From an uncultured Gammaproteobacteria bacterium (GTDB lineage: Bacteria > Patescibacteriota > Microgenomatia > CAZETR01 > Amesbacteraceae), in assembly GCA_964356225.1 (NCBI GenBank), contig CAYHGA010000001.1:104220-168219 (forward strand): a stretch of 64,000 nt of DNA. The letters run 5' to 3'. The notes under the pieces are model-generated. The model saw only the letters and a program-made list of their open reading frames with translations, made no database searches and was not told where the DNA came from. Below are positions 3,740 through 62,877 of this stretch, one piece after another (the stretch's first letter is position 1; each line of letters opens with the position of its first letter). The position numbers were made by a program, and so were the translations under genes.

Positions 3740-5173
3740 ATGGACAAAAAGTTTTACATTACTGCAGCTATTCCGTATGTCAATGCTAAACCGCATATTG
3801 GGCACGTTCTGGAATTTGTGCAAACGGATACTGTTGCACGGTACCACAAATTGCTAGGTGAAGAAGTGCTGGCATTGTCCGGCGGGGATGAAAATGCCTT
3901 GAAAAATGTGCAGGCGGCGGAGAAGGCCGGGGAGCCAATTAAAGAATTTATTGACAGAAATACGCAGCTTTTTTATGAACTGACAAAAAAACTGAATGTG
4001 CAATTTAACGTGTGGCAAAAAGGCAGCGACCAAAAAACACATTTTCCTTCCAGCCAGAAATTATGGAAACTGTGCAAGAAAGATATCTATACGAAAAAAT
4101 ATAAAGGCTTGTACTGCGTAGGGTGTGAGACGTTTTATGAGAAAGAAGAATTAAATGAAAACGGAGAATGTTTTGAGCATCCCGGGAAAAAATTAGACGA
4201 GGTGGAAGAAGAAAATTATTTTTTCCGGTTGTCCAAGTATCAAGAACAATTAATGAAACTTATTGAATCCGGTGGGTTGGAAATTGTTCCTGAAGAGAGA
4301 AAAAACGAAGTATTGGCTTTTTTGAAAGGCGGTTTGCAAGATATCAGCATTTCCAGATCAAACGAAAGGGCTAAAAATTGGGGAGTGCCAGTGCCGGGAG
4401 ACGACAAGCAGAGAATTTATGTGTGGTTTGATGCTTTAAATATTTACCAGTCGGGAATTGGGTTTGGGTGGGATGAAGAAAAATATACTAAATGGTGGCC
4501 GGCAGATGTACATGTGATAGGTAAAGGAATTATCCGCTTCCACGCAGTATACTGGCCTGCGTTTTTACTTTCCGCCGGACTGAAGCTACCCAAAAAAATC
4601 TTCGTACATGGATATTACACAGTGAATGGACAAAAAATGTCCAAAACACTGGGAAACGTGTATGATCCCCTACCGCTTTTAGAGAAATACGGAGCCGACC
4701 CACTGCGATATTATTGCCTAGCCAAAACTCCGCCGTTTACGGACGGGGATTTTTCAGAAGAAAAATTCATCGAGGCTTATAATTCGGATCTTGCTAATGG
4801 ATTAGGAAATTTGGTGGCCAGGGTGGCGAAACTTGCGGAGCGGGTGAATATTCAATATTCAATATTCAATATCCAATATCCAGATAATAGATTTAAAGAT
4901 ATTAAAAACTTGTTGGATAAATTTAGATTTGATGAAGCGTTAAAAACGATTTGGGGATGGATTTCTGAATTGGATCAACAAATTGAGAAAGACCAGCCGT
5001 GGAAATTGGAGGGGAAGGATCTGGAACAAATTCTGGCGGGCTACCGGGAGAATATTTTGAAAATTGCGACTGCATTACAACCATTCTTACCCCAGACGGC
5101 TGAAAAAGTGCTTAAACAGTTTTCGGGGCCGGAGATTAAAAGTGAATCTCCTTTGTTTCCGAGAATCAAATGA
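3740..5173 (+). CDS. metG: methionyl-tRNA synthetase (short form)
   Basis: Class I HIGH motif (AKPHIGHVLEF) and KMSKS motif (KMSKTLGNV). Overall MetRS architecture including the CxxC zinc knuckle region (CVGCETF). Confidence 0.85.
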   Translation: MDKKFYITAAIPYVNAKPHIGHVLEFVQTDTVARYHKLLGEEVLALSGGDENALKNVQAAEKAGEPIKEFIDRNTQLFYELTKKLNVQFNVWQKGSDQKTHFPSSQKLWKLCKKDIYTKKYKGLYCVGCETFYEKEELNENGECFEHPGKKLDEVEEENYFFRLSKYQEQLMKLIESGGLEIVPEERKNEVLAFLKGGLQDISISRSNERAKNWGVPVPGDDKQRIYVWFDALNIYQSGIGFGWDEEKYTKWWPADVHVIGKGIIRFHAVYWPAFLLSAGLKLPKKIFVHGYYTVNGQKMSKTLGNVYDPLPLLEKYGADPLRYYCLAKTPPFTDGDFSEEKFIEAYNSDLANGLGNLVARVAKLAERVNIQYSIFNIQYPDNRFKDIKNLLDKFRFDEALKTIWGWISELDQQIEKDQPWKLEGKDLEQILAGYRENILKIATALQPFLPQTAEKVLKQFSGPEIKSESPLFPRIK

Positions 5174-5940
5174 TTGACGCCCACTGCCATTTGCAGGAGT
5201 TTGAGGATATACAGGCAATCGTAAGCAGCGCAGGCAAGGCAGGCATTGCGGGCATGATTTGTTGTGGAGCTGATCTGGAAAGTTCAAAAAAAGCTATCGA
5301 AATAGCTGAAAAGTTTGAGCAAGTCTATGCGACTGTTGGATGTCATCCTGACCAAATTTTTAATTTTAAATTTTTAATATCGAGCCCCCTCTCGCGCTTC
5401 GCGAATAATCAATTTTTAAAATTGGCAAAATCTAAAAAAGTCGTGGCTATTGGAGAGTGCGGGCTGGATTTTTTACCAGAGACAAGAAAAGAAGAGAAAA
5501 GTGCTCAGAGAGAATTGCTGAAATTTAATATTGATTTGGCGAAAAAGGCGAGGTTGCCATTAGTGGTGCATTGTAGGAACGCCTTCGCAGATATATTTGA
5601 GATAGTGGATTATGACAAGGTGCAAATGCATTGCTTTACGGGGAATATGGAACAAATGCAGGAATGTGTGAGGCGGGGATGGTATATAAGTTTCGGGGGA
5701 ATTGTGACTTTTAAAAGCAGTCAGGAATTACGAGAGGTGGCGAAGGCGGTGCCGGAGGATAAATTGCTGGTTGAGACAGACGCGCCATATTTGGCTCCAG
5801 AGCCGGTGCGGGGTTCGCGAAACATGCCTACAAATGTTAAAATTGTGGCGGCCAAAATAGCTGAAGTGCGAGGTACTTCAATTAATCAAATTGAAGAAGT
5901 TACTACCGAGAACGCCCGGTTATTTTTTGGATTGAGATGA
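5170..5940 (+). CDS. tatD: TatD family hydrolase
   Basis: MIDAHCHL start, AIGECGLD motif, and HCRNA / ETDAPYL motifs, all typical of TatD DNases. The start overlaps the metG stop (ATGA). Confidence 0.8.
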   Translation: MIDAHCHLQEFEDIQAIVSSAGKAGIAGMICCGADLESSKKAIEIAEKFEQVYATVGCHPDQIFNFKFLISSPLSRFANNQFLKLAKSKKVVAIGECGLDFLPETRKEEKSAQRELLKFNIDLAKKARLPLVVHCRNAFADIFEIVDYDKVQMHCFTGNMEQMQECVRRGWYISFGGIVTFKSSQELREVAKAVPEDKLLVETDAPYLAPEPVRGSRNMPTNVKIVAAKIAEVRGTSINQIEEVTTENARLFFGLR

Positions 5941-9128: not shown

Positions 9129-10186
9129 TTGCCTTCCTGATGGCGGCTGCTATTTCCTGGATAGTAACCAGGTGGGTAGTTCAGAATGGCAAAATTTTAG
9201 GAATCATTGACGATCCCAAACAGCACAAACATCCCAAGGTGGTGCACGAGCGTCCCGTACCGCGAGGTGGGGGGATACCCATTTTTGCGGCCCTGATGAC
9301 TATTCTGGTATTTTCCGGCGGAAGTAAACAAATCTGGGGGGTAATTATTGGCGCAGCGATCTTGGCTATAGTGGGTTTCCTGGACGACAGGTATGAGGAA
9401 AAAATATCGCCGTATGTCCGGTTGGGAGTAAATATCCTGGCGGCTCTAGTGGTTATCGGATCCGGAATTGGCATTGCCTATATTACTAGCCCTTGGGGAG
9501 GAGTGATCGATTTATCGTGGCCAAGATGGTGCCTGGGAACACACTGTGTGTGGATTTGGGCAGATGTGTTCGCCTTGATATGGCTGGTGGCGATGCAAAA
9601 TATTGTGGGTTGGAGCAGCGGCGTGGACGGGCAGTTGCCGGGGTTTGTAATAATTGCGGCTATTACTATTGCCCTTTTGGGGTGGAAATTTAACGCGGAT
9701 TTCGGGCAGTGGCCGGTGATTATACTGGCGGCGGTAGTAGCCGGAGCCTACGCGGGATTTTTGCCGTGGAATTGGTATCCACAAAAAATTATGCCGGGGT
9801 ATGGAGGAAAAAGTCTAGCGGGGTTTCTTTTGGGAGTACTGGCCATTATGTCCGGGGCTAAAGTAGGAGCGATGATGCTGGTGCTAGGAATTCCCTTTAT
9901 CGACGCCGCTCTAGTCATAATTAAGCGGTTGCGGGAAGGACGAAGTCCGGTGTGGGGGGGGGACGAACACCTGCACCATTACTTGCTGAAACGGGGGTGG
10001 GGAAAAAGAAGGATCGCCTTGTTCTATTGGATGGCTGCGGCATTAATGGCAGTGGCCGTTTTGCGATTGAATAGTGAATGGAAGTACTTTACAATGGCCA
10101 CAGCTATCCTAGTAATTGGGGGAGTGATTTTATGGTTGCAAGGATTTTTGACTTATTCAAAACGGCCCGACCCCGACAGTGGGTGA
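9125..10186 (+). CDS. polyprenyl-phosphate N-acetylhexosamine-1-phosphate transferase (MraY/WecA family, GT4)
   Basis: Multi-TM protein carrying the DDxxE/D motif (FLDDRYEEK) and overall MraY/WecA topology, with a VWGGDEHLHHY-like C-terminal loop. Confidence 0.65.
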   Translation: MIAFLMAAAISWIVTRWVVQNGKILGIIDDPKQHKHPKVVHERPVPRGGGIPIFAALMTILVFSGGSKQIWGVIIGAAILAIVGFLDDRYEEKISPYVRLGVNILAALVVIGSGIGIAYITSPWGGVIDLSWPRWCLGTHCVWIWADVFALIWLVAMQNIVGWSSGVDGQLPGFVIIAAITIALLGWKFNADFGQWPVIILAAVVAGAYAGFLPWNWYPQKIMPGYGGKSLAGFLLGVLAIMSGAKVGAMMLVLGIPFIDAALVIIKRLREGRSPVWGGDEHLHHYLLKRGWGKRRIALFYWMAAALMAVAVLRLNSEWKYFTMATAILVIGGVILWLQGFLTYSKRPDPDSG

Positions 10187-40783: not shown

Positions 40784-40792
40784 TTCTATGAA

Positions 40793-42004: not shown

Positions 42005-42031
42005 TTTTGTAGCCGATGGTATAATTTTATT

Positions 42032-51339: not shown

Positions 51340-51627
51340 CTAGCAGACGGGGCCGGGGAGGCAGATGGAGAACATGGAGAAATTCAGTCCAAGGAAATTC
51401 CCCAGTAAGTTTAAGATAATCCAGGCAGATAAAACCAAGACCAGGCCACCGATGGCGTAGGTGAGAGTTTTTTGAGCTTTGGCGGCGCCTTCTTTGTCTC
51501 CACCGGCAGTTAAAAACCCAAAACCGCCCACAATCAACATTACTAAGACCGCAATTCCGGCTAAGGTCAAAGCACCGGAGACCACGGATGAAAAGACGGT
51601 TTCGAGATTTTGAATAGTGGCGGGCAT
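51340..51627 (-). CDS. pilin-like small 2-TM protein (VirB2/TrbC-like candidate), paralog 8 (promoter-distal; the array is minus-strand)
   Basis: 95 aa, two TM helices. The family motif is AGGDKEGAAKAQKTLTYAIGGLVLVLSAWII. Confidence 0.5.
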   Translation of the reverse strand: MPATIQNLETVFSSVVSGALTLAGIAVLVMLIVGGFGFLTAGGDKEGAAKAQKTLTYAIGGLVLVLSAWIILNLLGNFLGLNFSMFSICLPGPVC

Positions 51628-51704
51628 GTTTTTATTTTAACACTTCTCATCAAAACCAAATTGTCCCGCTTGCGGCGGGACAATTTAACGTCAACCCTAA
51701 GCAA

Positions 51705-52118
51705 CTATTGGGTAGTAATTGAGGGAATTACGAGGTTTAGAATACTGATGCCGAATATGCTATCGATAAGGAACGCAATGGCGTAGGTAGAAAAGACAAT
51801 CGCAAGGCCCAATAGGGCGGCCGTAATACGCTTGCGAGCTTTTTCGGTCCCTTCTTTGTCGCCGCCGGCCATAATCCATTGGACTCCTCCTATTAAGAGA
51901 AAGAAGAAGGCGACTAAACCTGCGCCCATTAGCACAAGGTTAATGCTGAGGCGAAGGATGTTTTGGGCATTAAACGTTCCCTCAGTGCCGATTGTCTGCC
52001 CTATTCCAGACTTAGGGATTAAGTCTATATTTTCTGCAAGGGCTGTGGTTGGTGATACGGTGAGCATTGTTGCTAGAGCAGAACCGTATTTGATGGCGTT
52101 TTTAATTTTGTTTGTCAA
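51705..52118 (-). CDS. pilin-like small 2-TM protein, paralog 7
   Basis: 137 aa. Contains MAGGDKEGTEKARKRITAALLGLAIVFSTYAI. Confidence 0.5.
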   Translation of the reverse strand: MTNKIKNAIKYGSALATMLTVSPTTALAENIDLIPKSGIGQTIGTEGTFNAQNILRLSINLVLMGAGLVAFFFLLIGGVQWIMAGGDKEGTEKARKRITAALLGLAIVFSTYAIAFLIDSIFGISILNLVIPSITTQ

Positions 52119-52133
52119 AGATGCTCACCTCCT

Positions 52134-52472
52134 TTACTGGATGACAGGAATTGTAAATTTAGTAATAGAAACACCAAATAATGTTTCAACTAAGTAGATT
52201 ATAGCAAAGATGGAGAAGACAATTGCAAGACCTATTAAAGCAGCGGTGAGACGTTTGGAGGCGGATTGGGTGCGTTCTTTGTCTCCTCCGGCGGTGATAT
52301 ATTCTATTCCGCCCCAGAGGAGCATAAAAAAGAAAATAATGCCGGCGGCTCCCAAAGCTAGAGTAATAAAATTGGTGAGAAAGAGCTGGAGGATGTCGAT
52401 GCCGGAACTATAACCAACGCTAGTATTGATTGCGGGGTTTTTAATGACGAAACCTTGGGCAAGTATTCTCAT
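52134..52472 (-). CDS. pilin-like small 2-TM protein, paralog 6
   Basis: 112 aa. Contains TAGGDKERTQSASKRLTAALIGLAIVFSIFAI. Confidence 0.5.
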   Translation of the reverse strand: MRILAQGFVIKNPAINTSVGYSSGIDILQLFLTNFITLALGAAGIIFFFMLLWGGIEYITAGGDKERTQSASKRLTAALIGLAIVFSIFAIIYLVETLFGVSITKFTIPVIQ

Positions 52473-52909
52473 CTTCGTGGAGTGCCACCGCCTCCAGTAC
52501 TACCGGGAATGTTACAAGTAAAGGTTGTGGTTCCGATGGTATTGGAAAAAAGGTCTCCAAATGGACAAAGGATGTTTATTCCGAAGATTAATCCTATGAT
52601 TCCAATTAGGGCGTAGGAAAATACGACTACAAACAGTCCTAAAATAGCATTCACGATTCTTTTTTGGGCGTTTTGCAGGGCTTGTTTTTCTCCTCCACCC
52701 GCTAACCACTGAAAGGCTCCGGCAAATATTTGAATGATAAACCAGACTCCGGCCGCAACAGTGAGAACACCGATTCCCGTGGAAAGAGTGGAGACAAAAA
52801 GGGCAAAGGGCTCTGTTCCTCCTTTGGTCAGGGTCTTGGTAAAATCTCCCAGGGGCCCCACGCCCTCAAAAGTTCCTAAAGGAGCGTCGGCTAAGAATTT
52901 CATGGGCAT
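52469..52909 (-). CDS. pilin-like small 2-TM protein, paralog 5
   Basis: 146 aa. Contains LAGGGEKQALQNAQKRIVNAILGLFVVVFSYAL. Confidence 0.5.
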   Translation of the reverse strand: MPMKFLADAPLGTFEGVGPLGDFTKTLTKGGTEPFALFVSTLSTGIGVLTVAAGVWFIIQIFAGAFQWLAGGGEKQALQNAQKRIVNAILGLFVVVFSYALIGIIGLIFGINILCPFGDLFSNTIGTTTFTCNIPGSTGGGGTPRR

Positions 52910-53256
52910 GATCCGGGCCCGTAAATAACGGGGGAGATAATGGCGGTGGCATCGCCAAAAATTAAATAGCCAAAGATTCCTGCAAGAACAAATGAGCCGG
53001 CGACAAAAGTCAGACCGAGGAGAGATTGGGTGAACTTGCCAAAAGCCTTACCCATGGCTTTGGCATCGTCACCGGCGGACATAAATCCGTAACCGGCGGC
53101 AATGAAATTCCAAAAAGCATATAGGCCGGCCAGGACGATGACCGTTTTAAGCAGGCCATTGCTTAGAGTAATCAATCCAGATCCACATTCACTACCTTTT
53201 AGGGGTGAATTTAATGTTGCAAACGGGTCATAAATTTTACCGAATGGGGAAATCAT
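52900..53256 (-). CDS. pilin-like small 2-TM protein, paralog 4
   Basis: 118 aa. Contains MSAGDDAKAMGKAFGKFTQSLLGLTFVAGSFVL. Confidence 0.5.
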   Translation of the reverse strand: MISPFGKIYDPFATLNSPLKGSECGSGLITLSNGLLKTVIVLAGLYAFWNFIAAGYGFMSAGDDAKAMGKAFGKFTQSLLGLTFVAGSFVLAGIFGYLIFGDATAIISPVIYGPGSCP

Positions 53257-53597
53257 AGTCTTATGTTAAAAAAGTCGATGCCGGTAATGACCCCGACTGC
53301 TTGGAGTATAAAATAAGCGGAGATGACAAGCAAGAATCCGATAACGGAAAATGTGATAGTATTTTTTGCTTGAGCTGCGGCTTTGGCGTCATCTCTGCCG
53401 GCTGACGAAATCATGGAAAATCCGGCGCCAAGCAGTAAAAACAAAAATATGACTCCGGCGCCAATGAGAGCGTTGGGGAGAAGGGAAGTGATAAGAGTAC
53501 CGAGATTGGCGTTGGTCCCGCCCGCAATGCCTGCGGCTTGAGGGGAATTTGTAAAAAACTGTTCATTAATGTCTACTTGGGATAATAATTTGGTCAT
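53253..53597 (-). CDS. pilin-like small 2-TM protein, paralog 3
   Basis: 114 aa. Contains SSAGRDDAKAAAQAKNTITFSVIGFLLVISAYFI. Confidence 0.5.
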   Translation of the reverse strand: MTKLLSQVDINEQFFTNSPQAAGIAGGTNANLGTLITSLLPNALIGAGVIFLFLLLGAGFSMISSAGRDDAKAAAQAKNTITFSVIGFLLVISAYFILQAVGVITGIDFFNIRL

Positions 53598-53899
53598 AAG
53601 ATTTCGATGCCAAAGATGGTTTGTATAACCTGAATTATAAAGTAAGCGGAAATGACAACTAATAAACCAATAAGAGCATTGACAAGTTCTTTAGAGGCGC
53701 TCTGGATTTTGTTTTGATCACCGGCGTTGGTGAGGTAGGTGTATCCGGCGGAAATAAGACGAACGAAGAAAAATAAACCGGAGAGGGCGATGGCAAAAGT
53801 AAGAATGCGGGCTACATAATATCCAAGAAACACATCTGGGGTAAGAAGATTTAGGGGACCAGGTTGGTTAATGCCAGTGATTTGGGCGAGTTGTTTCAT
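53594..53899 (-). CDS. pilin-like small 2-TM protein, paralog 2
   Basis: 101 aa. Contains TNAGDQNKIQSASKELVNALIGLLVVISAYFI. Confidence 0.5.
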   Translation of the reverse strand: MKQLAQITGINQPGPLNLLTPDVFLGYYVARILTFAIALSGLFFFVRLISAGYTYLTNAGDQNKIQSASKELVNALIGLLVVISAYFIIQVIQTIFGIEIL

Positions 53900-54639
53900 A
53901 GGTTGAGACCAGGATTTCCTACGAAGCCGGGTAAATTAAGGATTTTTACTCCAATAAAGTTTAACAGAACGAGGCTTAATGCAATAATGATGAGGCCGGC
54001 GAGGGCGGACATGAGCAGTTCGCGGGCGGCTTGAACCTTTTTCGGGTCGCCACTGGCGGTGGTCATTTGAAAGCCGGCTAAGACGATCATCAAAAAGGCA
54101 ATACCTCCGCCAACCCCTACTCCCCAACCTAAGAGTTGGGAAACCAGCTGTTTGGGATCTCCGGCCATCAAACAACCAATGGCAGTAGAGACTCCAAGAT
54201 TATCTGTGCCACAAAGAGCGCTTGAGCTGGCTGCGGGGGGATTGATGAGAGAAACACACACTCCGCTGCTGCAATTTCCGAAACTGCAGGTGTTTCCGGG
54301 ACAACAAGTTTGTCCTACATTACCGCAAGCTGCACAGTGAATTGTATTGTCGCAGTTCAGGTTGTTGAAGCAGCGAAAACCGCCAGTATATGAACCGCAA
54401 CAAGGATCTCCGACTTTATCACAAGTAGTGGGGGGGGTAGTGGGGGCTGGGATTTTACAATGGATTGTACTATCGCACTCGCTTGCTGGTGGATTGCAAT
54501 ACAAAATACTAGTTATAGAACCACAACAGGCATCGCCTACAGCGCTGCAGTTGGTGGCGAGGGAGGGGGACGGCCGGAGGCCGGAATAAACACCAATAAG
54601 TACCAAGGCCGAAATAAATATTAATAATTTACCGTTCAC
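53896..54639 (-). CDS. pilin-like protein with N-terminal triple Cys-rich module, paralog 1
   Basis: 247 aa with a signal peptide. It has three repeats of GDxCCGS...C.N...C..TIHC, then the family 2-TM core (TASGDPKKVQAARELLMSALAGLIIIALSL). Confidence 0.5.
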   Translation of the reverse strand: MNGKLLIFISALVLIGVYSGLRPSPSLATNCSAVGDACCGSITSILYCNPPASECDSTIHCKIPAPTTPPTTCDKVGDPCCGSYTGGFRCFNNLNCDNTIHCAACGNVGQTCCPGNTCSFGNCSSGVCVSLINPPAASSSALCGTDNLGVSTAIGCLMAGDPKQLVSQLLGWGVGVGGGIAFLMIVLAGFQMTTASGDPKKVQAARELLMSALAGLIIIALSLVLLNFIGVKILNLPGFVGNPGLNL

Positions 54640-54649: not shown

Positions 54650-55210
54650 TTAGCACAATTTTTGCAGCCAGAGTTTTTTCAGGCGGGAGAATTGATGGGG
54701 GTTGAGATTGAGTTCGGGGACGGAGGTTTGAGAGTTGAAAAGGCTTATCACACCGGTGGGGATTTGAGACCAGTCAAGAGATGGAAGTAAGAGGAGGCTG
54801 ATAATGTCAATTAAGTCTTTGTGGCCTTTGCCGCTGCCTTGACGGGCGCGGTAAGCGGTGAGCTTGAGGGCGATGAGAGTTTCAGGCGGGGGGACGGTGA
54901 AACCGTCAACAATGACGGTCCGGTCAATGTCGGGGCCCAGCTGGGAGTAGTGGGGAACGTAAACGTCAATTTGGACTTCGTCCCGGGCGATCTCGTATTT
55001 TTTGAGGCGCTCGTTTTTGGTTAGGGGAAAGTCGTAGCGAAGTTTTTCTAAAGTATCGAATTTGACTAACAAATCAATGTCTTTGGATTTGAGCTGGTGG
55101 GTGTAGAGCCAGACTGCCCAGCCGCCAATTAGAATAAATTGGTATTTTTTGGCCAGCTGTTGTAAAAGTTCCCAGCTCTTGGTGGTGACTTGGTCACGGT
55201 AATAGTTCAT
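54650..55210 (-). CDS. AbiEii/AbiGii-like nucleotidyltransferase (putative type IV TA toxin)
   Basis: FILIGGWAVWLYTHQLKSKDIDLLV matches the GG...R.S.DIDL NTase pattern of AbiEii toxins. It overlaps the upstream wHTH gene by 17 bp. Confidence 0.4.
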   Translation of the reverse strand: MNYYRDQVTTKSWELLQQLAKKYQFILIGGWAVWLYTHQLKSKDIDLLVKFDTLEKLRYDFPLTKNERLKKYEIARDEVQIDVYVPHYSQLGPDIDRTVIVDGFTVPPPETLIALKLTAYRARQGSGKGHKDLIDIISLLLLPSLDWSQIPTGVISLFNSQTSVPELNLNPHQFSRLKKLWLQKLC

Positions 55211-55796
55211 CGATTTTAGACTTGACTAAAGTAACAAAATCTTTGGCGTACCAATCGGACAGGCCCCAGAGGTCGACGAAGAGTTGAGATAGAGAAATGG
55301 ATTCCTTCGGAAAGAGAGATTTGAGGAAAGGGTTGGCCTGGAGAACAAAGAGATTTGGGGGGCCAGGGAGGGTTTCGGGAGCGAAGCGGTCAATGACGGA
55401 TTGGGGTTGTGGGTGGTAACAATAGACTTTGTCGTAATCGGTCGGGGGTTCGCCGAAGCGCTCGCGGACCGCGGAGTAGGCGGTAGTGAGGGAGCCGTCG
55501 GGCAGACGCCCCTCGATTTCCATTACCGGTAGATTAACGCGGATTTGGGCGACCAGATCGGCGGACAAACGACGATGATTGGCCCAGTGGTAAAGGATCT
55601 TGTGGAAGTCAGTGATTTCGAACCCGCGTTTGTGGACGCGGACGGCGCCTAGTTCACGCAGGGGTTTGAGGGCGAGATTGGCGGTGGAAGAGGAAAGGTG
55701 AAAATGGCTGGCTAAGTCCTGCTGGCGGAAAGCCGAGAGACGGCTATCCAGGTAGGAGTCAAGGAGATGGCGCCAGATGAATTCGATTTTCTTCAT
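55194..55796 (-). CDS. AbiEi-like winged-HTH protein (putative cognate antitoxin/regulator)
   Basis: The N-terminal wHTH is FRQQDLASHFHLSSSTANLALKPLRELGAV. It is co-oriented and overlapping with the NTase gene. Confidence 0.35.
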   Translation of the reverse strand: MKKIEFIWRHLLDSYLDSRLSAFRQQDLASHFHLSSSTANLALKPLRELGAVRVHKRGFEITDFHKILYHWANHRRLSADLVAQIRVNLPVMEIEGRLPDGSLTTAYSAVRERFGEPPTDYDKVYCYHPQPQSVIDRFAPETLPGPPNLFVLQANPFLKSLFPKESISLSQLFVDLWGLSDWYAKDFVTLVKSKIDELLP

Positions 55797-55865: not shown

Positions 55866-57620
55866 GTGAAGAAGTTCATAGTTATTAGTTCATGGTTCAT
55901 GGTAATTTTGGTGGCGGCGACGGAGGTAAAAGCGGACGAGTGTGATAATCCGGGGAGTTTGACGGATTCAGTGCAAATTTCTCAATGTATAGGGAAATTT
56001 AGCGGGATTGCGGATGCAATTTCCAGAGCTAATTCAACAAATCAGAGTGAATTAAATTCGCTCAATGCGCAAATCGCAAAGCTCAAAGCGCAAATAACCA
56101 ATATGAATCTGCAGATTCAGAAATTGCAGGCAGATGTGTTTGAGAGGCAGGTAAAGATTGGGGTGAGGGAGACACTATTGGCGGCGCGGGTAAAGCAGGA
56201 TTATTTGCGTAAACGGGACCAGACGGTGCTGATGACGTTGTTTGCAGCGGATACTGCCCAAGAACTGTTTGCCGATCTGGCTTATAGAGAAAAGTTGGCT
56301 AGGGACGATCGGGAGGTCATTTCGTCTGTTTTGGCCGAAATTACAACGCTCAATGCTCAAAGCTCAATGCTCAATAGCCAAAAGAGTAATTTAGATGCGT
56401 TAAAGAAACGGGTGGATGATCAAGCCACGTGGCTGGCGGGGGAGGTGGCCAAGGCAAACGCTTATGTATCTGATTTATCGGGGAAAATTGCCTCGCTGAC
56501 GGCGCGACAAAACGAATTATTGGCAGCCAAGACGGGAACATATCAAACATCTGTGGGAGATGTGCCTTTGGCTGACGATGCCAACGCCCGACCCACTTTT
56601 GATCCTGGGTTTAGGCCTGCTTTTGCTGCTTTTTCCTTTGGGGTGCCCCATTTTAAAGGTATGAGCCAGTATGGGGCGTTTGGGAGAGCTAAAAACGGCC
56701 AGAGTGCGGAGACTATTTTGCACGCTTATTACGGAGATGTGGAGATTAAGAAAGATTATGACGCAGGTAGGCTGATAAGCGTTGCCGGCTATGGGCGGAT
56801 GGATATTGAAACGTATGTAAAAAGAATTTACGAAATGCCCAGTTCCTGGGGAGATGAGGGAGGAATTGAGGCTTTGAAAGCACAATCCGTAGCGGCGAGA
56901 TCGTACGCTCTAGCGTGGACCAGGGAGGGAACGGGAGGAGCAATTTGTACAACCGAAGCTTGTCAGGTTTATAAAAATGCCAACAAGGGAGGAAAATGGG
57001 AGGAAGCGGTTAACGCAACCAGGGGATGGGTACTGATGAAAGGCGGAAAGATAATTAGTGCCTGGTATGCTTCAACTTCGGGAGGGTATCAGGAATCTTA
57101 TAACGCATTGGCATATTTGCAAGACGGAAGCAGCTATAGTACGCCGGGTTTTTGGGATACTACTTCCGACTGGACCAGGTGGGCGGATGGGGCGTGGGAG
57201 GTTAAAGGAGGCAGCCCCTGGTTTTATAAAGGCTGGTATAAAGGTCGATCGGGAACCGCCTGTGGAAGAAGTCATCCTTGGTTGTCTGAAAACGAGTTTG
57301 CAGATATTGTGAATGCGGCGTTGGTATATAGCAATGGTGGGGATGCCAGTGGAATTTTTCCTACCGATGGATGTTTGGGCCAAACGGGATGGGATAAAGC
57401 CAGAATGGCTGTGGAGGCCGATAAATATGGAGGTCGGGTGAGTAGTGTGAGTAGTGTGCGGGTGGACCACGGCAACAATGGGGTGACCAACAAAGTAATT
57501 CTGTCTACCAATAGAGGAAACGTAGAAATTTCGGGAACGAATTTTTACAAAGTATTTAATTTGCGGGCGCCGGGGGCAATTCATCTGACCAGTGGATTAT
57601 TTAATGTGGAGAAGAAGTGA
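55866..57620 (+). CDS. SpoIID/LytB domain protein with N-terminal coiled coil
   Basis: Signal anchor and a long coiled coil. The C-terminal AQSVAARSYALAWTREGTGGAICTTEACQVYK matches the SpoIID motifs (AQAVAARTYAl ... CdTthCQvY). Confidence 0.6.
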   Translation: MKKFIVISSWFMVILVAATEVKADECDNPGSLTDSVQISQCIGKFSGIADAISRANSTNQSELNSLNAQIAKLKAQITNMNLQIQKLQADVFERQVKIGVRETLLAARVKQDYLRKRDQTVLMTLFAADTAQELFADLAYREKLARDDREVISSVLAEITTLNAQSSMLNSQKSNLDALKKRVDDQATWLAGEVAKANAYVSDLSGKIASLTARQNELLAAKTGTYQTSVGDVPLADDANARPTFDPGFRPAFAAFSFGVPHFKGMSQYGAFGRAKNGQSAETILHAYYGDVEIKKDYDAGRLISVAGYGRMDIETYVKRIYEMPSSWGDEGGIEALKAQSVAARSYALAWTREGTGGAICTTEACQVYKNANKGGKWEEAVNATRGWVLMKGGKIISAWYASTSGGYQESYNALAYLQDGSSYSTPGFWDTTSDWTRWADGAWEVKGGSPWFYKGWYKGRSGTACGRSHPWLSENEFADIVNAALVYSNGGDASGIFPTDGCLGQTGWDKARMAVEADKYGGRVSSVSSVRVDHGNNGVTNKVILSTNRGNVEISGTNFYKVFNLRAPGAIHLTSGLFNVEKK

Positions 57621-57632: not shown

Positions 57633-58289
57633 ATGGTGGAGGTGTATAAAGCAGGAGGGCAGGGCGAGAAGATGGGAGTAAGGGCTTGGTGGAAGGAGTT
57701 GGTGGACGAGGTGCTGGCCAAAGTGGGAGAAGAGCCCAGGAGGGCGCTGTTGGGGGCGTTTTGCGTACGGCCGGATCAGAGATTTATGACTCAGCAGGAG
57801 GATGAGGAGATTGTGTTGCTACTGCGAGCGCATCCGATTACTAATATAGGATGGGTGCTGATCGTGATTTTGACATTGATACTACCGGGGGTTATTTTGG
57901 GAACAGGAGTGTTTGCGGCGGTACCGGGAAAATTCGTATTAGTGGGTAAACTGGTGTGGTACCTGGTGACATTAATGTACGCCATGGAGCGATTTTTATT
58001 TTGGTATTACTCGATATTTATTGTGACTAACGAGCGGTTGGTGGATATAGATTTTTATAATCTTATGCATCGGGTGGTGACATATGCAAATTTAAACCAT
58101 ATCGAAGAGCCGGCTTCGGTCGTGGGGGGCTTTATCCGTTCGTTGTTTCAATATGGCAATGTTTGGGTAACCACTGCTTCGGAAAAACCCACGGTCGAAG
58201 CATTAAGAGTACCTTATCCGGATAAAGTGGTAGATATCATTAGCAGGCTCTCGGAAGAGCTGGAGAAGCGAAGGGAGAGGGGTGAATAG
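57633..58289 (+). CDS. membrane protein with bacterial PH (YdbS/T-like) domain
   Basis: A two-TM hairpin is followed by FIVTNERLVDIDF, which is characteristic of the bPH_2 family. Confidence 0.35.
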   Translation: MVEVYKAGGQGEKMGVRAWWKELVDEVLAKVGEEPRRALLGAFCVRPDQRFMTQQEDEEIVLLLRAHPITNIGWVLIVILTLILPGVILGTGVFAAVPGKFVLVGKLVWYLVTLMYAMERFLFWYYSIFIVTNERLVDIDFYNLMHRVVTYANLNHIEEPASVVGGFIRSLFQYGNVWVTTASEKPTVEALRVPYPDKVVDIISRLSEELEKRRERGE

Positions 58290-58521
58290 TTCAGAGTTCA
58301 TAGTTAATAGTTTGGAGAAAATTACCCTGTTTGGGATGGTGAAGTGGATGTTTGTGGCGGGATTGGTGATGTATGTAGCTTTCTCGGTAATAATTGTAAG
58401 GCAGGTGGGAGTGATGACGGAGGCGATAGAGGATGATATAAACGGGATAATTTCGTTGTTTGCCTGGGTGCATCTGCTCTTGGCTATCGCATTGGTAGTT
58501 TTGGCCATTGCGGTGCTGTAA
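58282..58521 (+). CDS. small membrane protein
   Basis: 79 aa, two hydrophobic helices. Coupled to the flanking genes. Confidence 0.25.
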   Translation: MNSSEFIVNSLEKITLFGMVKWMFVAGLVMYVAFSVIIVRQVGVMTEAIEDDINGIISLFAWVHLLLAIALVVLAIAVL

Positions 58522-58526: not shown

Positions 58527-60368
58527 ATGGAAGTATTTATTGGCAAAATAGTGGGAAGGATTAGCCAGAAACGGTGGGCGCAGGTGTACGATTTTGCGCA
58601 CGAAACCCGGGGAAGATTAATAGTGGCGGCCAGTTTGGCGGAAAGAGAAGGAAAAACGGAGATGGAAATGGTGGAAATGGGCCGGGAATTGCTGGCCCGG
58701 ATACACGAAATATACTTTGGCAGCTTGGAAGAAGAGGCGATGAAAAATCTGAAATTGGCAATGGAGACGGTAGAGACCGAGTTTGAGGGGGCAGAAATGG
58801 CGGCGTTGGCGGTGGCGGGCGAGGCGTTATATGTGATGGTGAATGCGGGCGGGGCGTGGGCGAAGGTGGGGGGAAAAGAAGGATGGGTGATGAACCCGAA
58901 TGACAAATCACAAATGACAAATGACAAAACAAAAGTGTTGAGCAGCTGGGCGAAAGACCAGGAGACGATAGTTTTTGGGAACGGCCGGTTTTGGGAAGAG
59001 TTGCCGCTGGGTACAGTAAGAGCGGCGGTGGAAAATGGGGATATGGAGGCGGCGGTAGAAACATTGGGGGCGGTGGTGCATGGGGGAGAAAAAGGAGAAG
59101 GAGCGGCGGGAGTAATTGTAAAAATATCCAAGGTTCAAAGTTCAATGCCCAATAAAGCTCCAGAACCGGAACTGCCCAAAAAAATAAAAAGACCCTTTAA
59201 ATTGCCGGAGATTAAGCTGCCGAAGATAAAGTGGCCCAGTTTGCCAAACCGGGGGCCGGTGTATGTGGTGAGGGGGAATAAAGAATTGAACCGGAAGAGG
59301 ACAATGTGGGCGGGGATAGGGTTTTTGGTGGTGCTGGTACTTTTGGTTAGCGGTTGGATGTGGAGTGAGCGGAACAAGGCTATTAAGCAGAGTGTCCAGA
59401 ACAAGCAGATTGAGACTATCCAGGAAAAATTTAATGAGGCCAAAGCAGTAGTGACGCTGAATCCAGCCAGAAGTAGGGAATTGTTGAAAGAAGTAGAGCC
59501 GGAAGTGCAAAAATTTAAAGGGACAAAAAAAATTGACCAGAGAATGACAGCAATATTAGGAGAATGGGATGGAGTATGGAATCAGGCGATGGGAACTAAG
59601 CCGGTGAATCCGGAGTTGATAATAGACTTAGGGCTTGTGAGGGAAGGGATGACAGGAGAAAAGCTAGAGATGAGAGATGGGAAACTAGAGGTGCTGGACA
59701 CTCAAGGTGGGAGGCTAGTGGAAGTTGATGCGGAGAAGAAAAGCGCTGAAGTGGTAGCGGGGAAAGGAGATTTGGGTGAAGTCAGGCTAATGGCTACATA
59801 TCCGGGGAAAACCACGATCCTTTCGGAGAAAGGGATAATCGAATGTCAAATGTCAAATGTCAAATGTCAAATCGTTGTAAAAGCGGATGATGAGTGGGGA
59901 GAGATTGTGGATATGGGGATGTGGGGGGGAAATATTTATCTGCTGTCTAAAACGGGGATATGGAAGCTCCAGGGAGGAGAGAGCGGATATGGAACCAAAC
60001 AAGCGTGGTTAGCTAAGGCGGAAGACACAACCAGTCTAAGTCTAAGTCAAAGTATGGCGATTGATGGAAGTGTTTGGGTGACAGCCGGAGGAAAAATACT
60101 GAAATATACAAGAGGGGTGAAAGAGAATTTTGAAATAAGCGGGGTGGAGGGGATGAGCGGAGACGTGATATATACGGATGATGAGACGGAAAAATTATAT
60201 GTGTTGGATGCGGCAAATGGGCGGGTGGTGGTATTGGCTAAAACAGGAGAGTATGAGAGTCAATATATGAGTGAAGAAATGAAGAAAGCGACAGGGCTGG
60301 TGGTGGACGGGAAGGCGGGAAAGATATATTTATTGGCGGGGAGCAAGGTTTATGAAATTAATAAATGA
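58527..60368 (+). CDS. hypothetical membrane-anchored protein with C-terminal beta-rich domain
   Basis: 613 aa with a single TM (GIGFLVVLVLLVSGWMW) mid-protein. Tandem heptamer repeats (AATGACA, GTCAAAT, AGTCTA) lie in frame. Confidence 0.35.
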   Translation: MEVFIGKIVGRISQKRWAQVYDFAHETRGRLIVAASLAEREGKTEMEMVEMGRELLARIHEIYFGSLEEEAMKNLKLAMETVETEFEGAEMAALAVAGEALYVMVNAGGAWAKVGGKEGWVMNPNDKSQMTNDKTKVLSSWAKDQETIVFGNGRFWEELPLGTVRAAVENGDMEAAVETLGAVVHGGEKGEGAAGVIVKISKVQSSMPNKAPEPELPKKIKRPFKLPEIKLPKIKWPSLPNRGPVYVVRGNKELNRKRTMWAGIGFLVVLVLLVSGWMWSERNKAIKQSVQNKQIETIQEKFNEAKAVVTLNPARSRELLKEVEPEVQKFKGTKKIDQRMTAILGEWDGVWNQAMGTKPVNPELIIDLGLVREGMTGEKLEMRDGKLEVLDTQGGRLVEVDAEKKSAEVVAGKGDLGEVRLMATYPGKTTILSEKGIIECQMSNVKCQIVVKADDEWGEIVDMGMWGGNIYLLSKTGIWKLQGGESGYGTKQAWLAKAEDTTSLSLSQSMAIDGSVWVTAGGKILKYTRGVKENFEISGVEGMSGDVIYTDDETEKLYVLDAANGRVVVLAKTGEYESQYMSEEMKKATGLVVDGKAGKIYLLAGSKVYEINK

Positions 60369-60795
60369 CAAAGCGAAGTTTAATTATGAATTGGGGGAAA
60401 GGGTTGAGACGGGGATAGTGCTGACAGGGCCGGAAGTAAAGTCGGTGAAATTGGGGCAAATAGATATGTCGAGCGCGCACGTTCGAATTCAAAATTCAAA
60501 ATTCAAAAGTCAAAATGAAGTTGCGGTAGTTGGTTTGCATATTTATCCTTATAAACACGCGGACAATACTAATTACGATCCGCAAAGGAGCAGAAAATTA
60601 TTGCTGCATCAGAGAGAGATTTTGAGGCTTTTAAGTAAAATGAGACAGGGCCGGTTGATGCTGGTGCCGACGGCGATGTATACCAAAGAAGGCAAAATAA
60701 AGCTGGAAATAGCTTTAGCGAGAGGGAAGAAGAAATATGAGAAAAGAGAAGTGATTAAGAAAAGAGATATAGAGCGGGAAAGCAGGAGAGTATAA
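60352..60795 (+). CDS. smpB: SsrA-binding protein SmpB
   Basis: NDKAKFNYELGERVETGIVLTGPEVKS and IYPYKH...KLLLHQREI are canonical SmpB motifs. Confidence 0.85.
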   Translation: MKLINDKAKFNYELGERVETGIVLTGPEVKSVKLGQIDMSSAHVRIQNSKFKSQNEVAVVGLHIYPYKHADNTNYDPQRSRKLLLHQREILRLLSKMRQGRLMLVPTAMYTKEGKIKLEIALARGKKKYEKREVIKKRDIERESRRV

Positions 60796-60799
60796 ATTG

Positions 60800-61134
60800 T
60801 GGAGGTGGCGGGAATTGAACCCGCGTCCGAAAAAGTTCTTCTAAAGCATCTACAAGCATAGTCTCGGAAAAGCGCCGGACCGCTTGGATTAGTTGATCTT
60901 TCTCCGATGTTGGTTAATCCTAACCTATCGGAGGCATCTCGATTTAATTACACCCTAGCCGGATTCTCGAGATAAATCCGGAAAGAATGCTCACTTTAGC
61001 TTAAGCAAAAGCGTACGCGAAGCGAGAAGTGTCGTATTGATTGACACTTAAGTTTCGAACCTGTTTTACGAGCCTGGTTCAAGCTCGGCTTGCAGCTTTT
61101 CAAAGTACATTTCCCGTCGAATCCTGTCACCCCC
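60800..61134 (-). ncRNA. ssrA: tmRNA (ssrA)
   Basis: The minus-strand 5' end GGGGGUGACAGGAUUCGACGGGAAA matches the tmRNA 5' consensus. The 3' end is a T-arm plus acceptor (CGCGGGTTCAATTCCCGCCACCTCCA). A G3·U70 wobble is kept in the acceptor. The internal ORF ...NQYDTSRFAYAFA* is a plausible tag peptide. Confidence 0.75.
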
Positions 61135-61848: not shown

Positions 61849-61911
61849 AATTTTTAATTTTCAATTTTAAATTTTTAATCAATATCAAATGTTATAGAAT
61901 TTAAATTTCAA

Positions 61912-62877
61912 ATGAATCTTTGGCAAAAACTTGCTAAATCTAAAAAACCATTTTTGGCGTTGGCGCCGATGGAGGAGGTAACGGATACGGTGTTTCGGCA
62001 AATAATCAGCAAGATCAGCAAACCAAATGTGATGTTTACGGAGTTTGCGAATGTAGAAGGACTAATGTCAGTGGGAAGAGATGAAGTGATTAAGAGATTA
62101 AGATATGAAGAAATAGAGCGGCCGATGGTGGCCCAGATTTGGGGGAAAGATCCCAAGAACTTTTGCGAAGCGACTAAGTTGATTAAGAGATTAAGATTTG
62201 ATGGGGTAGACATCAACATGGGGTGTCCGGAGAAGGATGTGGTCAAAAATGGTTGTTGTATAGCCCTTATAAATAATCGGAGCTTGGCAAAGGAGATAAT
62301 TGATGCTGTAAAAAGAGGAGTGGGAAAATTACCAGTGAGTGTAAAAACGAGAATTGGGTTGGATAAAATAGTAACGGAAGACTGGTGCGGATTTTTACTG
62401 GAGCAGAAAATAGATGCCTTGACGATGCATGGGCGGACGGCCAAGGAGAAATCGGATGTGCCGGCGCACTGGGAGGAAATTGCAAAAGTCGTTAGTCTAA
62501 GAGACAAGTCTAAGTCTAAGACGATAATAATTGGCAACGGAGATATACGCAGCGCTCAGGAAGCAGTGCTCAGTGCTCAGAAGTACGGAGTTGATGGAGT
62601 GATGATTGGGAGGGGAGTGTTTGAGAATATTGCCTGCTTCAGTGCTAAGGGCCAAGTGCTAAGTGCTCAGGAGAATATTAATTTACTGCGGGAGCATCTG
62701 GAGTTGTGGGGGAAAACATGGGGGGAGACTAAGAACTTTGCCATTATGAAAAAATTTGTGAAGGTGTATATCAAGGGATGGGAAGGAGCGGGAGAGCTGA
62801 GGGCCAGACTGTTTGAAACTAACTCTTTGGCAGAGATGGCAGAACTGGCGGAGGAGGTGGGATTCGAACCCACGTGA
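61912..62877 (+). CDS. dus: tRNA-dihydrouridine synthase
   Basis: LAPMEEVTDTVFRQI, INMGCPEKDVVKNGCC and TMHGRT are Dus family motifs. Several in-frame heptamer/octamer micro-repeats. The 3' end overlaps a minus-strand tRNA. Confidence 0.8.
   Translation: MNLWQKLAKSKKPFLALAPMEEVTDTVFRQIISKISKPNVMFTEFANVEGLMSVGRDEVIKRLRYEEIERPMVAQIWGKDPKNFCEATKLIKRLRFDGVDINMGCPEKDVVKNGCCIALINNRSLAKEIIDAVKRGVGKLPVSVKTRIGLDKIVTEDWCGFLLEQKIDALTMHGRTAKEKSDVPAHWEEIAKVVSLRDKSKSKTIIIGNGDIRSAQEAVLSAQKYGVDGVMIGRGVFENIACFSAKGQVLSAQENINLLREHLELWGKTWGETKNFAIMKKFVKVYIKGWEGAGELRARLFETNSLAEMAELAEEVGFEPT

Follow-up and report, generated by a model that had tools for sequence, protein, structure and literature searches.

On balance, the short heptanucleotide arrays that crowd the 64-kb stretch of bacterial DNA analysed here (the window; 46% G+C) appear to be miniature dispersed repeats derived from cassettes that resemble the intervening sequences (IVSs) of rRNA genes, with selection acting as a filter on copies spread or homogenised as DNA. 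The commonest arrays match the inverted repeats at the ends of cassettes built around a PF05635 gene, so at least those look like dispersed copies of a tiny element. The source is an uncultured bacterium of groundwater type, which TsaD homologs place in the Candidate Phyla Radiation (CPR) near Candidatus Amesbacteria (Microgenomates). Over-representation of heptanucleotides is already known in bacteria, and so are IVSs with an S23p open reading frame (ORF), but the latter only in rRNA.

Tandem Repeats Finder (TRF; score at least 30) returned 96 rows for the window, 42 of them with period 7, against a mean of 1.6 in the 20 dinucleotide-preserving shuffles that served as the expectation. Periods 6, 8 and 14 gave 6, 15 and 7 rows (shuffle means 0.65, 1.45 and 0.2, respectively), and perfect period-7 runs of at least 16 bp numbered 23 against 0.37 ± 0.48 in 30 dinucleotide shuffles. 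The initial annotation had reported tandem arrays of 6–9-bp words inside ORFs that stay open. TRF and the family listing locate all of its example arrays exactly or within a few bases, though the words are not evenly spread over 6–9 bp, period 7 being dominant. Within or overlapping ORFs that are kept open lie 40 of the 42 period-7 tracts, the two others (27720-27748 and 61849-61879) being intergenic; this is close to the 95% of the window that a greedy ORF map covers, indicating that coding sequence is neither avoided nor preferred by the tracts. The tracts are richer in A+T than the window (70% versus 54%), and their 39 exact doublets comprise 26 distinct units. According to Pfam, the hosts include metG, tsaE, tsaD, a class-Ia aminoacyl-tRNA synthetase (aaRS) gene, dnaN, smpB, dus, an RNase H gene, a Wzy_C/O-antigen-ligase-like gene, a TatD-family gene and a SpoIID-domain gene. 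The identities proposed earlier for metG, tsaE, tsaD, dnaN, smpB, dus and a waaL-like gene (the Wzy_C gene) are upheld by these matches, and the gene first called valS (22896-24860) is assigned at class level only, as a class-Ia aaRS. The arrays had also been described as highly unusual. This is fair for their siting within essential coding sequences and does not extend to the repeat class itself, since heptanucleotide over-representation in bacteria is known already, going by what PMC4679880 and PMC4692102 relate of Mrazek (2007).

By unit sequence the tracts fall into family F1 (units AGTTCAT, GGTTCAT or GTTAnTR; 14 TRF tracts), F2 (AATTTTT-type units; 10 tracts), F3 (AGTGCTC- or AATGCTC-type units; 8 tracts), F4 (AATGTCA, AATGACA or AATTCAA; 4 tracts) and F5 (AATATTC; 2 tracts), with 4 singleton tracts outside any family. 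F1 has a polar consensus of about 30 nt, (R)GTTAkTR-GTTAwTR-GTTCATR-GTTCATR-GTA, and in nine of the ten arrays that contain both kinds of unit the GTTAnT units stand 5' of GTTCAT. Such a fixed order is unlike that of a plain microsatellite grown in situ. At unrelated loci F2 shares a 31-nt consensus (AATTTTTAATTTTTAATTTnnAATTTTTAAT) with a variant third unit. What is conserved in these families is the DNA and not the peptide. In plus-strand genes F1 is translated as IVHSS, FIVHGSRFIV or SSWFMV, whereas minus-strand genes read it as MNYELITNN or MNHEP, and F2 reads IFNFKFL in one orientation and LKIKN in the other. The peptides MNYEL and MNHEP had been taken for gene starts; they are mostly internal to their ORFs (for example at residue 138 of 264 or 340 of 390), and only a VirB4-like gene (start 40424) begins in an array.

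The relation to cassettes is seen at two PF05635 genes. IVP1 (40421-40783, minus strand), which lies between a PrgI-like and a VirB4-like gene, matches PF05635 ('23S rRNA intervening sequence protein', an S23p four-helix-bundle, bAvd-like family) with E 3.3e-33 over profile positions 1-105 of 106. Its 3' arm (40408-40442; plus strand GATTAGTTAGTTGGTTCATGGTTCATTGTTCATGG) holds the IVP1 stop codon together with the start codon and N-terminus (MNQLTNH) of the VirB4-like gene, and its inverted 5' arm lies at 40786-40809 (plus strand CTATGAACTATGAACTAACTAACC). Read on the IVP1 sense strand, GGTTAGTTAGTTCATAGTTCATAG before the gene and CCATGAACAATGAACCATGAACCAACTAACTAATC after it are inverted copies of the F1 consensus. 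A second, shorter homolog of about 80 aa, IVP2 (41657-41899, minus strand; local HMM E 8e-37), is likely truncated. Its 3' arm belongs to family F3 (41630-41661, plus strand, reading CAGTGCTCAGATAAAAGAGAAAAGTGCTCAGG) and its 5' arm is at 41916-41947 (minus strand; gene-sense strand AGTACTCAGTGCTCAGAGAGAAGTACTCAGTA); these arms can be aligned with the solo F3 arrays of tsaE, tsaD, dus and the TatD-family gene. Hence each PF05635 gene has its own family in inverted copies, F1 at IVP1 and F3 at IVP2, and both families are also dispersed in the window. In the predicted RNA folds, minimum-energy as well as centroid, the arms pair with each other (z -3.25 for cassette 1 and -2.97 for cassette 2). 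An ORF-less 'mini-cassette' hairpin is present in the Wzy_C gene (28273-28346, plus strand), in which an F1 arm (28273-28304) is separated by a loop of 10 nt from an inverted arm of AACCAAT units (28315-28346); its predicted RNA stem is about 30 bp long (-38 kcal/mol, z -6.07), and the hairpin is conserved in the relative L189. No rRNA was found in the window, and the cassettes lie between protein-coding genes. The idea that the tracts are remnants of a tiny mobile element, raised in the initial annotation, is borne out to the extent that the GTTCAT and AGTGCTC families match cassette arms and differ in presence or absence among relatives, the mobility itself being inferred.

Cassettes of this design are not confined to the window. 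A metagenome scan for GTTCATRGTTCATRGTTCAT retrieved 120 loci by DNA pattern alone, and four of these contain a PF05635 gene; inverted arrays directly flank the ORF in L135 and L144, and an array is present on the 5' side only in L170. Fetching PF05635 homologs by protein similarity alone yielded seven distinct loci (L207, L208, L210, L213, L216, L218 and L220), all seven of which have GTTnnTR-type heptamer arms at the ORF, in six cases on both sides and inverted. Taking both searches together, terminal inverted arms are found in L135, L144, L207, L208, L210, L216, L218 and L220. In L208 and L210 the arms stand at the PF05635 gene yet the locus has zero period-7 runs, and arm sequence in genomes without dispersed arrays indicates that it predates the dispersal. 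The protein-fetched cassettes reside in operons for a type IV secretion system (T4SS), a Cu-ATPase, ATP synthase (between atpG and atpD) and glycosyltransferases, and a Roizmanbacteria locus of the control panel described below (L004) has the same design with AAATAAC units. Occupancy also varies among syntenic relatives: both cassettes are present in the window and the first alone in L207, and L189 lacks the first, its PrgI and VirB4 genes overlapping directly there, but has a copy at the second site. The PF05635 homologs also match PF22296 (bAvd) weakly. As further observations on cassettes in core operons of other Microgenomates, these occupy 3001-3348 in L220 and in L216, and about 5001-5357 or 3001-3351 in L208, L210 and L218; in others, located between cupredoxin and Cu-ATPase genes, the 3' arm supplies MNFELTNKLTN as the N-terminus of the ATPase. 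An origin of the units as 7-bp target-site duplications of a transposon was considered and ruled out, as the units recur across loci, reach up to 5 copies and leave no visible target-site duplication at the PrgI/VirB4 junction.

Dense arrays are restricted to one lineage. The control panel, 80 TsaD-centred loci from diverse bacteria (1.36 Mb; best TsaD identity 54% among the matches listed), has 0.26 perfect period-7 runs per 10 kb, compared with 3.6 per 10 kb in the window. The syntenic close relatives L082–L085 (TsaD 77-78% identical; Amesbacteria GW2011 GCA_001002455.1 and JGI/ENA contigs) show 8-10 period-7 runs per locus (run length at least 15 bp, locus length 17.6-21 kb), and L189 also shares the enrichment; the syntenic and more distant L086 (61%) has one such run. 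The preferred units are genome-specific across loci. The array-bearing related genomes come from JGI, NCBI, ENA and Logan samples.

Between near-identical assemblies the arrays are stable. A low-coverage assembly of the same organism (L001; ENA contig ERZ2470813 NODE_251, 54.6 kb) aligns at 99% to window positions 11727-32739 (about 21 kb) with 133 gaps, all noise of 1-4 nt and none a 7-nt step, and reproduces every tract in the aligned part. L084 and L085 differ by one mismatch in 17 kb and by no heptamer step, and the only indels between L082 and L083 are of 55 nt and 111 nt, again without a heptamer step. The comparison across strains that the initial annotation had called for therefore shows no 7-nt change of copy number in any tract among three near-identical assembly pairs, and reproduction of the tracts by an independent assembly without a 7-nt indel indicates that they are neither artefacts nor visibly phase-variable. 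As to the two larger differences, the 111-nt one (L082 16341-16451 versus L083 16340/16341) is an in-frame segment of 37 residues with AATTTTT arrays in the RNase H gene, missing from the NCBI assembly, and the 55-nt one (L082 5539-5593) truncates a neighbouring ORF; true polymorphism or a local assembly error at repeats could account for both. Because the ORFs are long and contiguous under table 11 and align with orthologs over their full length, a recoding of TGA (genetic code 4 or 25) was ruled out.

Protein and codon alignments with L082, L084, L086 and the closer relative L207 revealed two kinds of relation between array and native sequence, so that the ortholog comparison suggested earlier gave a mixed answer: some arrays are in-frame insertions, and others are same-length replacements. 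Compared with three orthologs, the Wzy_C array at 28411-28443 is a clean 27-nt insertion (NHELITNNY) after native ...ACT ATG. The tsaE array adds 4 aa relative to the two closest orthologs, and a hypothetical 264-aa protein is likewise 4 aa longer than its orthologs at its F1 array. In a Wzy loop, the window, L082 and L084 have a 7-aa (21-nt) insertion, for which they carry three different units. Replacement is seen in an aaRS loop that has the same length in all, reading KSQKSKV in the window, RSQESG in L082, LNAQPSAH in L084 and GEAKDDP in L086; the three relatives differ in sequence at this position and two of them carry other heptamer arrays. Similarly, the window has LKIKNLEIKELIKNYKLKIKN in a helix of RNase H where the non-repeat relative L086 has LKIKYLEVKKLLTERNLKVEK. 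The two dnaN arrays behave differently when compared with L207. That at 35062-35088 (F1) aligns gaplessly, with point changes, and is not an insertion relative to L207, and at 34753-34782 L207 has a different heptamer array (AAGATTC type) of identical length with its register shifted by 1 nt; there only 13 of 36 nt are identical to L207, versus 79% for the whole gene. The 1-nt difference in register excludes stepwise point substitution. By these alignments, the arrays evolve more quickly than the sequence on either side, yet retain their length and 7-nt periodicity. Stepwise slippage cannot drive such turnover in essential genes, since a step of ±7 nt is a frameshift there. Where an array ends, the native sequence is often similar to it, as with ACT ATG in Wzy and GTA CTC in tsaE.

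The orientation of the arrays follows the DNA strand. All 11 solo F1 arrays are in plus-strand orientation whatever the direction of the gene, and the only two inverted F1 copies are both partner arms of hairpins. In minus-strand genes GGTTCAT is kept in the TGA-containing sense, though the opposite orientation would be stop-free. Uniform orientation and retention of the TGA-containing sense indicate that orientation is set at the DNA level and that selection only trims. Among all loci fetched, those with an absolute GC skew of at least 0.15 have tandem GTTCAT on the G-rich strand in 13 cases versus 2, and the skew of array-rich genomes is +0.16 to +0.25, as against 0.01 in the array-poor relative L086. 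That the arrays merely follow a bias of G over C was ruled out, because the GC skew of the tracts is about 0.10 and that of third codon positions is 0.45.

The strand composition of the window is itself extreme, with a plus-strand GC skew of +0.16 to +0.37 per 4 kb and, whichever way the gene is oriented, of +0.45 at third codon positions. The skew keeps its sign across dnaA (32694-34055) and dnaN in mid-window (0.21 to the left and 0.26 to the right), and 58% of the coding length is on the minus strand; either this lineage has its origin somewhere other than dnaA or the skew has another cause. Beside the heptamers, an 8-nt family, AAGAGATT, occurs in tandem at 21754-21772, 22703-22729, 29102-29120, 62075-62111 and 62181-62196, in one orientation throughout. 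Its copy in tsaD encodes the conserved native EEIKRLSDE, so at least that copy is not an insertion.

A history that accommodates these observations may be outlined. Families of 15-35-nt dispersed DNA repeats, built of degenerate 7-nt units, would have proliferated in one Amesbacteria-like CPR lineage. F1 (GTTAnTR...GTTCATR) and F3 (AGTGCTC) would be copies of the terminal inverted arms of IVS-like cassettes, each of which comprises a PF05635/S23p/Avd-like ORF within inverted heptamer arrays, lies between operon genes and has arms able to pair as a putative RNA stem. Solo arms and at least one ORF-less hairpin would have been written into intergenic and coding DNA by a strand-asymmetric process acting on DNA, after which slippage or short templated conversion may maintain the periodicity within arrays and, in time, replace them. 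Selection would retain the copies that are in frame, stop-free in the frame used and situated in tolerant loops or linkers or encoding compatible residues, and the surviving copies would simply be translated, as MNYELITNN, MNHEP, LSAQ or LKIKN. That the arrays move, and by what route, is an inference from this pattern; the PF05635 protein may take part, and the arms may be processed as RNA.

Several points weigh against a derivation of the tracts from IVS-like cassettes. No transposase, reverse transcriptase or other plausible mobilising enzyme was detected when essentially all ORFs of the 64 kb were compared with Pfam, and PF05635 is not known to have a catalytic activity. At the one empty/filled site examined, the PrgI/VirB4 junction, neither a target-site duplication nor a defined element boundary was found. 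Most arrays are solo arms, not hairpins. F2 (AATTTTT), F4 (AATGTCA/AATGACA) and F5 (AATATTC) have no cassette in the window and are linked to one by extrapolation; singleton families such as AATGTCA and AATATTC are compatible with an origin in situ. Units at orthologous tracts differ by species (AATTTTT, AATTTCT, AAATTTG), which could be ordinary concerted evolution within arrays, and heptamer periodicity with same-length replacement is more naturally explained by slippage or conversion than by cut-and-paste insertion. As for strand, the orientation statistics come from one window on a single replichore plus short metagenomic contigs, and in the 80 loci of the metagenome scan that were analysed for orientation against GC skew the relation was positive in 46 and negative in 34, giving no general correlation, because the motif occurs in many unrelated organisms (GC 31-65%) too; the strongly skewed loci are the informative subset.

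The possible, if less probable, alternative is that the tracts are microsatellites grown in situ, of the kind described as short tandemly repeated repetitive (STRR) sequences or long simple sequence repeats (SSRs). A lineage-specific defect of replication or repair would let 7-nt slippage amplify local proto-repeats independently at each site, easily melted AT-rich units would win, and the cassette arms would be slippage products as well. Heptanucleotides are the most abundant class of long SSR in many bacteria, for which a 7-nt polymerase footprint has been proposed (Mrazek 2007, as related in PMC4679880), and slippage accounts for the periodicity as well as for the diversity of unrelated units amplified, 26 among the 39 exact doublets. 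The A+T content of the tracts, the native sequence at array ends and the whole-array changes of unit between orthologous tracts, which concerted evolution predicts, are likewise as expected. Slippage from local sequence does not, however, explain why the polar F1 consensus of about 30 nt and the 31-nt F2 consensus with its variant third unit recur at unrelated loci, why arm sequence stands at the PF05635 genes of L208 and L210, which have no period-7 run, or why solo arrays are uniform in strand orientation. Simple slippage could also not grow or homogenise coding arrays in essential genes, where each step shifts the frame, and near-identical assemblies lack copy-number differences. A less probable process is templated short-patch conversion, in which constant-length segments are overwritten from an ectopic template, either by template switching at the fork or by homing of the type seen in diversity-generating retroelements (DGRs), with a reverse transcriptase and with the Avd-like PF05635 protein as accessory. 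Same-length replacement in the aaRS loop, RNase H, Wzy and dnaN, the 1-nt register difference between close relatives in dnaN, the genome-specific choice of units, the weak PF22296 matches and the junction microhomology all speak for conversion. Against it stand several clear net insertions of 12-27 nt, and neither a reverse transcriptase nor a template repeat was found in the window or in the neighbourhoods of the seven PF05635 loci examined.

Selection on the proteins is far less probable as the cause. It would maintain 7-residue periodic peptides (LKIKN, LSAQ, MNYEL) as linkers or as amphipathic or disordered segments, in the manner of Borg repeats, which create new disordered regions (PMC9879509). 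Three 7-nt units do specify one cyclic 7-aa peptide in any frame, the arrays are found in loops and linkers (for example the inter-domain linker of metG, aa 370-381), and the dnaN and RNase H arrays align gaplessly with native ortholog residues. Nevertheless, a given DNA unit yields peptides that have nothing in common when the strand or frame of the gene changes, and the same arrays are also found between genes and spanning stop/start junctions. Orientation, too, tracks the DNA strand, not the gene, to the point that GGTTCAT in minus-strand genes keeps its TGA-containing sense despite a stop-free opposite. Two further suggestions of the initial annotation, slippage-prone contingency tracts and an assembly or synthetic artefact, are scarcely credible. 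Repeat units not divisible by 3 are the classical device of phase variation, and mis-assembly can yield short repeats. However, the hosts are essential housekeeping genes (metG, tsaE, tsaD, aaRS, dnaN, smpB, dus, RNase H), where a ±7-nt change would be lethal as a frameshift, and not surface, virulence or restriction-modification genes, each tract has 2-5 copies, the three near-identical assembly pairs, including L001 over 21 kb and L084/L085 over 17 kb, lack any 7-nt step, and relatives from JGI, NCBI, ENA and Logan samples show the same phenomenon.

Derivation from IVS-like cassettes can also be set against known systems. Rickettsia palindromic elements are palindromes of about 100-150 bp, and the small dispersed repeats of Nostoc are hairpins of 21-27 nt without heptamer substructure. 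The arrays resemble both in being short dispersed repeats that lie in frame inside unrelated and often essential genes, where they are translated and tolerated at permissive surface positions; neither of the two is known to be linked to PF05635 genes. In-ORF repeat units of Borgs are reportedly multiples of 3 nt with signs of protein-level selection, unlike the present 7-nt unit, whose signal lies at the DNA level. Common to Borgs and the window are pervasive, fast-evolving tandem repeats within ORFs that make new peptide segments (PMC9879509). Unlike in DGRs, no reverse transcriptase with a pair of template and variable repeats accompanies the Avd-like gene in the window or the seven PF05635 neighbourhoods. 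For single-strand mechanisms of IS200/IS605 type, a replication-linked strand bias is expected. The REPIN-RAYT system offers a single-copy gene flanked by inverted copies of a dispersed repeat, paralogs with different repeat flavours and hairpin doublets, all with counterparts here, and it was on such grounds that REPINs were tied to RAYT transposases (PMC3116915). It differs in that the flanked gene here is PF05635 and has no HUH/Y1 (IS200-like) transposase domain, and in that the repeats are mostly intragenic singlets of heptamers, not extragenic, with one clear hairpin doublet (28273-28346).

Known heptanucleotide repeats include the STRR sequences of cyanobacteria (Calothrix/Nostoc), GGGNATC in Xanthomonas and Nostoc, and TAACTGA in Beggiatoaceae, cyanobacteria and Bacteroidetes, and they are over-represented intergenically and under-represented in coding sequence (PMC4679880; PMC4692102). 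The arrays of the window share with the STRR type 7-nt units arranged head to tail, a copy number of 2-6 per site, sites that number dozens to hundreds in a genome, and a distribution that is sporadic and restricted to lineages. STRR-type units with stops in all frames are confined to gene ends, and their 'reverse' copies in ORFs give 7-aa repeats (PMC4679880, section 15; PMC4692102). Unlike these, 40 of 42 tracts here are in or overlap ORFs, essential genes among them, several unit families coexist in place of one dominant heptamer, and the polar consensus of the main family, about 30 nt long, matches gene-cassette arms; a strand bias as found here is absent from the Xanthomonas repeats (PMC4692102). 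The rRNA IVSs of Coxiella and Leptospira also have an S23p/PF05635 ORF between inverted repeats at its two ends that pair into a stem of about 22-30 bp, here a predicted one, as well as a sporadic distribution and a suspected but unproven mobility; RNase III excises the Coxiella IVS, which measures 428 nt and has a 28-bp stem (PMC4990558). In contrast to rRNA IVSs, which lie in 23S helices 25 or 45, the present cassettes lie between the protein genes of operons, their arms consist of tandem heptamers, the downstream gene takes its start codon and N-terminus from the 3' arm, and solo arms are dispersed. A literature search found no publication linking PF05635/S23p to heptamer repeats, or reporting such repeats in Amesbacteria or CPR.

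Over-representation of heptanucleotides in scattered lineages has been an open question since 1990 (STRR) and 2007 (genome surveys), with no generating mechanism known, and the origin and mobility of rRNA IVSs and the function of their S23p ORF are equally unresolved. The window joins the two questions, because heptamer-built sequence serves as the arms of S23p cassettes, which are widespread in Microgenomates in mid-operon positions, and is present as dozens of solo copies in essential genes of one lineage. Binding of S23p to arrays, processing of the arms by RNase III, replication-strand-specific insertion and the matching of families to cassettes thereby become testable. Essential CPR proteins (beta-clamp, TsaD/TsaE, aaRSs, SmpB) tolerate, and keep exchanging, short repeat-encoded segments, which is relevant to annotation, to alignment-based phylogeny and to the evolution of reduced genomes. 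A bolder and rather doubtful extension, drawn by analogy with RAYT-REPIN, is that PF05635 genes and inverted heptamer arms may form an unrecognised gene-plus-miniature-repeat system, whose arms would have broken loose in one Amesbacteria-like lineage and been written strand-specifically, often at constant length, into essential genes, continually re-coding short loops of the proteome. If so, it would provide a mechanism of spread for rRNA IVSs and their ORF, and a new route of protein sequence innovation in CPR bacteria.

The individual arrays, whose coordinates all refer to the plus strand, are distributed as follows. The leftmost F1 array (AGTTAAT AGTTCAT AGTTCAT AGT, 2489-2512) lies at the 3' end of a Trp-repressor-like ORF (2152-2511) and overlaps the stop of an M29 peptidase gene (2506-3747, minus strand). 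Five AATATTC units in metG (3740-5173) occupy 4847-4882 and encode NIQYSIFNIQYP in the linker between the catalytic domain, which ends at aa 362, and the anticodon-binding domain, which starts at aa 385. The TatD-family gene has an F2 array of AATTTTT type (5355-5378) and an F3-related 14-nt unit, AGAGAAAAGTGCTC (5493-5519), which matches both arms of the second cassette. Four tracts share the conserved hypothetical gene at 17713-18507 (minus strand): F2 arrays (AATTTTT AATTTTT AATTTTA AATTTTT AAT ..., 17832-17885) that are read as LKIKN repeats, an F2-like array of TTTTTAG/TTTTTAA (18011-18039), the F1 array that lengthens the protein (18067-18096, read TMNYELLTNN) and an F2 array with the 31-nt consensus (18345-18375). 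In tsaE (21426-21863) the F3 array GTACTCA GTGCTCA ATACCCA GTACTCA GTACTCA (21600-21636) is read VLSAQYPVLST, and in a variable loop of tsaD (21844-22881) AGTGCTC is repeated 2.3 times (F3, 22528-22543), other heptamer-derived peptides being present at this loop in orthologs. The aaRS gene has a TCAAAAG array (24538-24564, read KSQKSKVK).

Further along, the intergenic F2 array at 27720-27748 corresponds to AATTTCT x3 at the orthologous tract of L082. The RNase H gene (27776-28183, minus strand) contains F2 arrays that overlie native helix sequence (27850-27912) and an F1 array (27979-28008, read AMNHEPITVN), in place of which L082 and L084 have a CCCTCAA-type array of equal length. Besides its hairpin, the Wzy_C gene (28149-29321) carries the inserted F1 array already described (28411-28443), an F2 array in an indel-rich loop (28605-28628, read DIKNLKLKI) and another F1 array (28996-29026, read RRTMNYALA). 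Of the two dnaN arrays (gene 34211-35317), that at 34753-34782 is of AATCCTC/AATGCTC type and the F1 array at 35062-35088 is read KFIVHGSRFIV. The PrgI-like gene (40793-41623, minus strand) has a solo copy of the cassette arm (GTTATTGGTTACTTGGTTACTTGGTTCATGGTTCATAG, 41096-41133), a GGTATTC/AGTATTC/AATATTC array (41161-41191) and a second solo arm copy (41292-41323), where the sequence of L207 is unrelated. Three arrays lie in the SpoIID-domain gene (55866-57620, plus strand): F1 at its N-terminus (55878-55905, read SSWFMV), a CAAAGCG-type array (56063-56094, read LNAQIAKLKAQ) and an F3-related AATGCTC array (56344-56375, read LNAQSSMLN). An F1 array (58285-58312) is located at the stop of the ORF 57633-58289, and the 613-aa ORF 58527-60368 contains AATGACA x4.3 (58899-58928) and a perfect AATGTCA x4.4 (59842-59872, read CQMSNVKCQ). 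AATTCAA x4.4 in smpB (60486-60516; gene 60352-60795) is read IQNSKFKSQN, and in the Pfam match SmpB is about 6 residues longer than the profile. The second intergenic F2 array (61849-61879), with the 31-nt consensus, lies upstream of dus (61912-62877), in which the F3 array CAGTGCT x2.4 (62564-62580) and an F3-like array of AGTGCTA units (62641-62667) are found.

The window contains a T4SS/conjugation-like cluster (35314-41623 and 51340-54639, minus strand) with a PrgI-like gene, a VirB4/TraG-like ATPase gene and large unannotated ORFs. Seven T4SS_pilin paralogs were identified, six of them in tandem at 51705-54639, where the run includes one more ORF without a Pfam match. The linker of the PrgI-like protein is hypervariable among relatives, with an F1 array in the window and an inverted repeat of a C-run and a G-run in L207. 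The second PF05635 cassette is adjoined by a toxin-antitoxin pair of an MNT nucleotidyltransferase (Polbeta/NTP_transf_2) and a HepT-like RNase (41963-42884), and a second nucleotidyltransferase-like gene (AbiEii/DUF6036) is paired with a helix-turn-helix (HTH) gene at 54650-55796. Three unrelated contigs with the GTTCAT pattern (L142, L143 and L165) often have their arrays in closely spaced inverted pairs 46-130 nt apart, for example 6159/6292, 6376/6509 and 8085/8183 in L165, pointing to inverted, hairpin-forming heptamer arrays as a general motif that extends beyond CPR. In the Amesbacteria GW2011 locus L082, an ORF for a DUF559 (Vsr-like) endonuclease with 23-nt inverted repeats (9542-9853) lies between tsaE and tsaD, and two more small ORFs separate tsaD from the aaRS gene; the window has none of these. 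Adjacent to smpB on the plus strand is the tmRNA gene (60797-61134, minus strand), with the tag peptide VNQYDTSRFAYAFA. Two tRNA-Ser genes in opposite orientation, 360 nt apart, are located at 62846-62938 (minus strand) and 63301-63389 (plus strand), and the dus ORF overlaps the first of them by about 30 nt.

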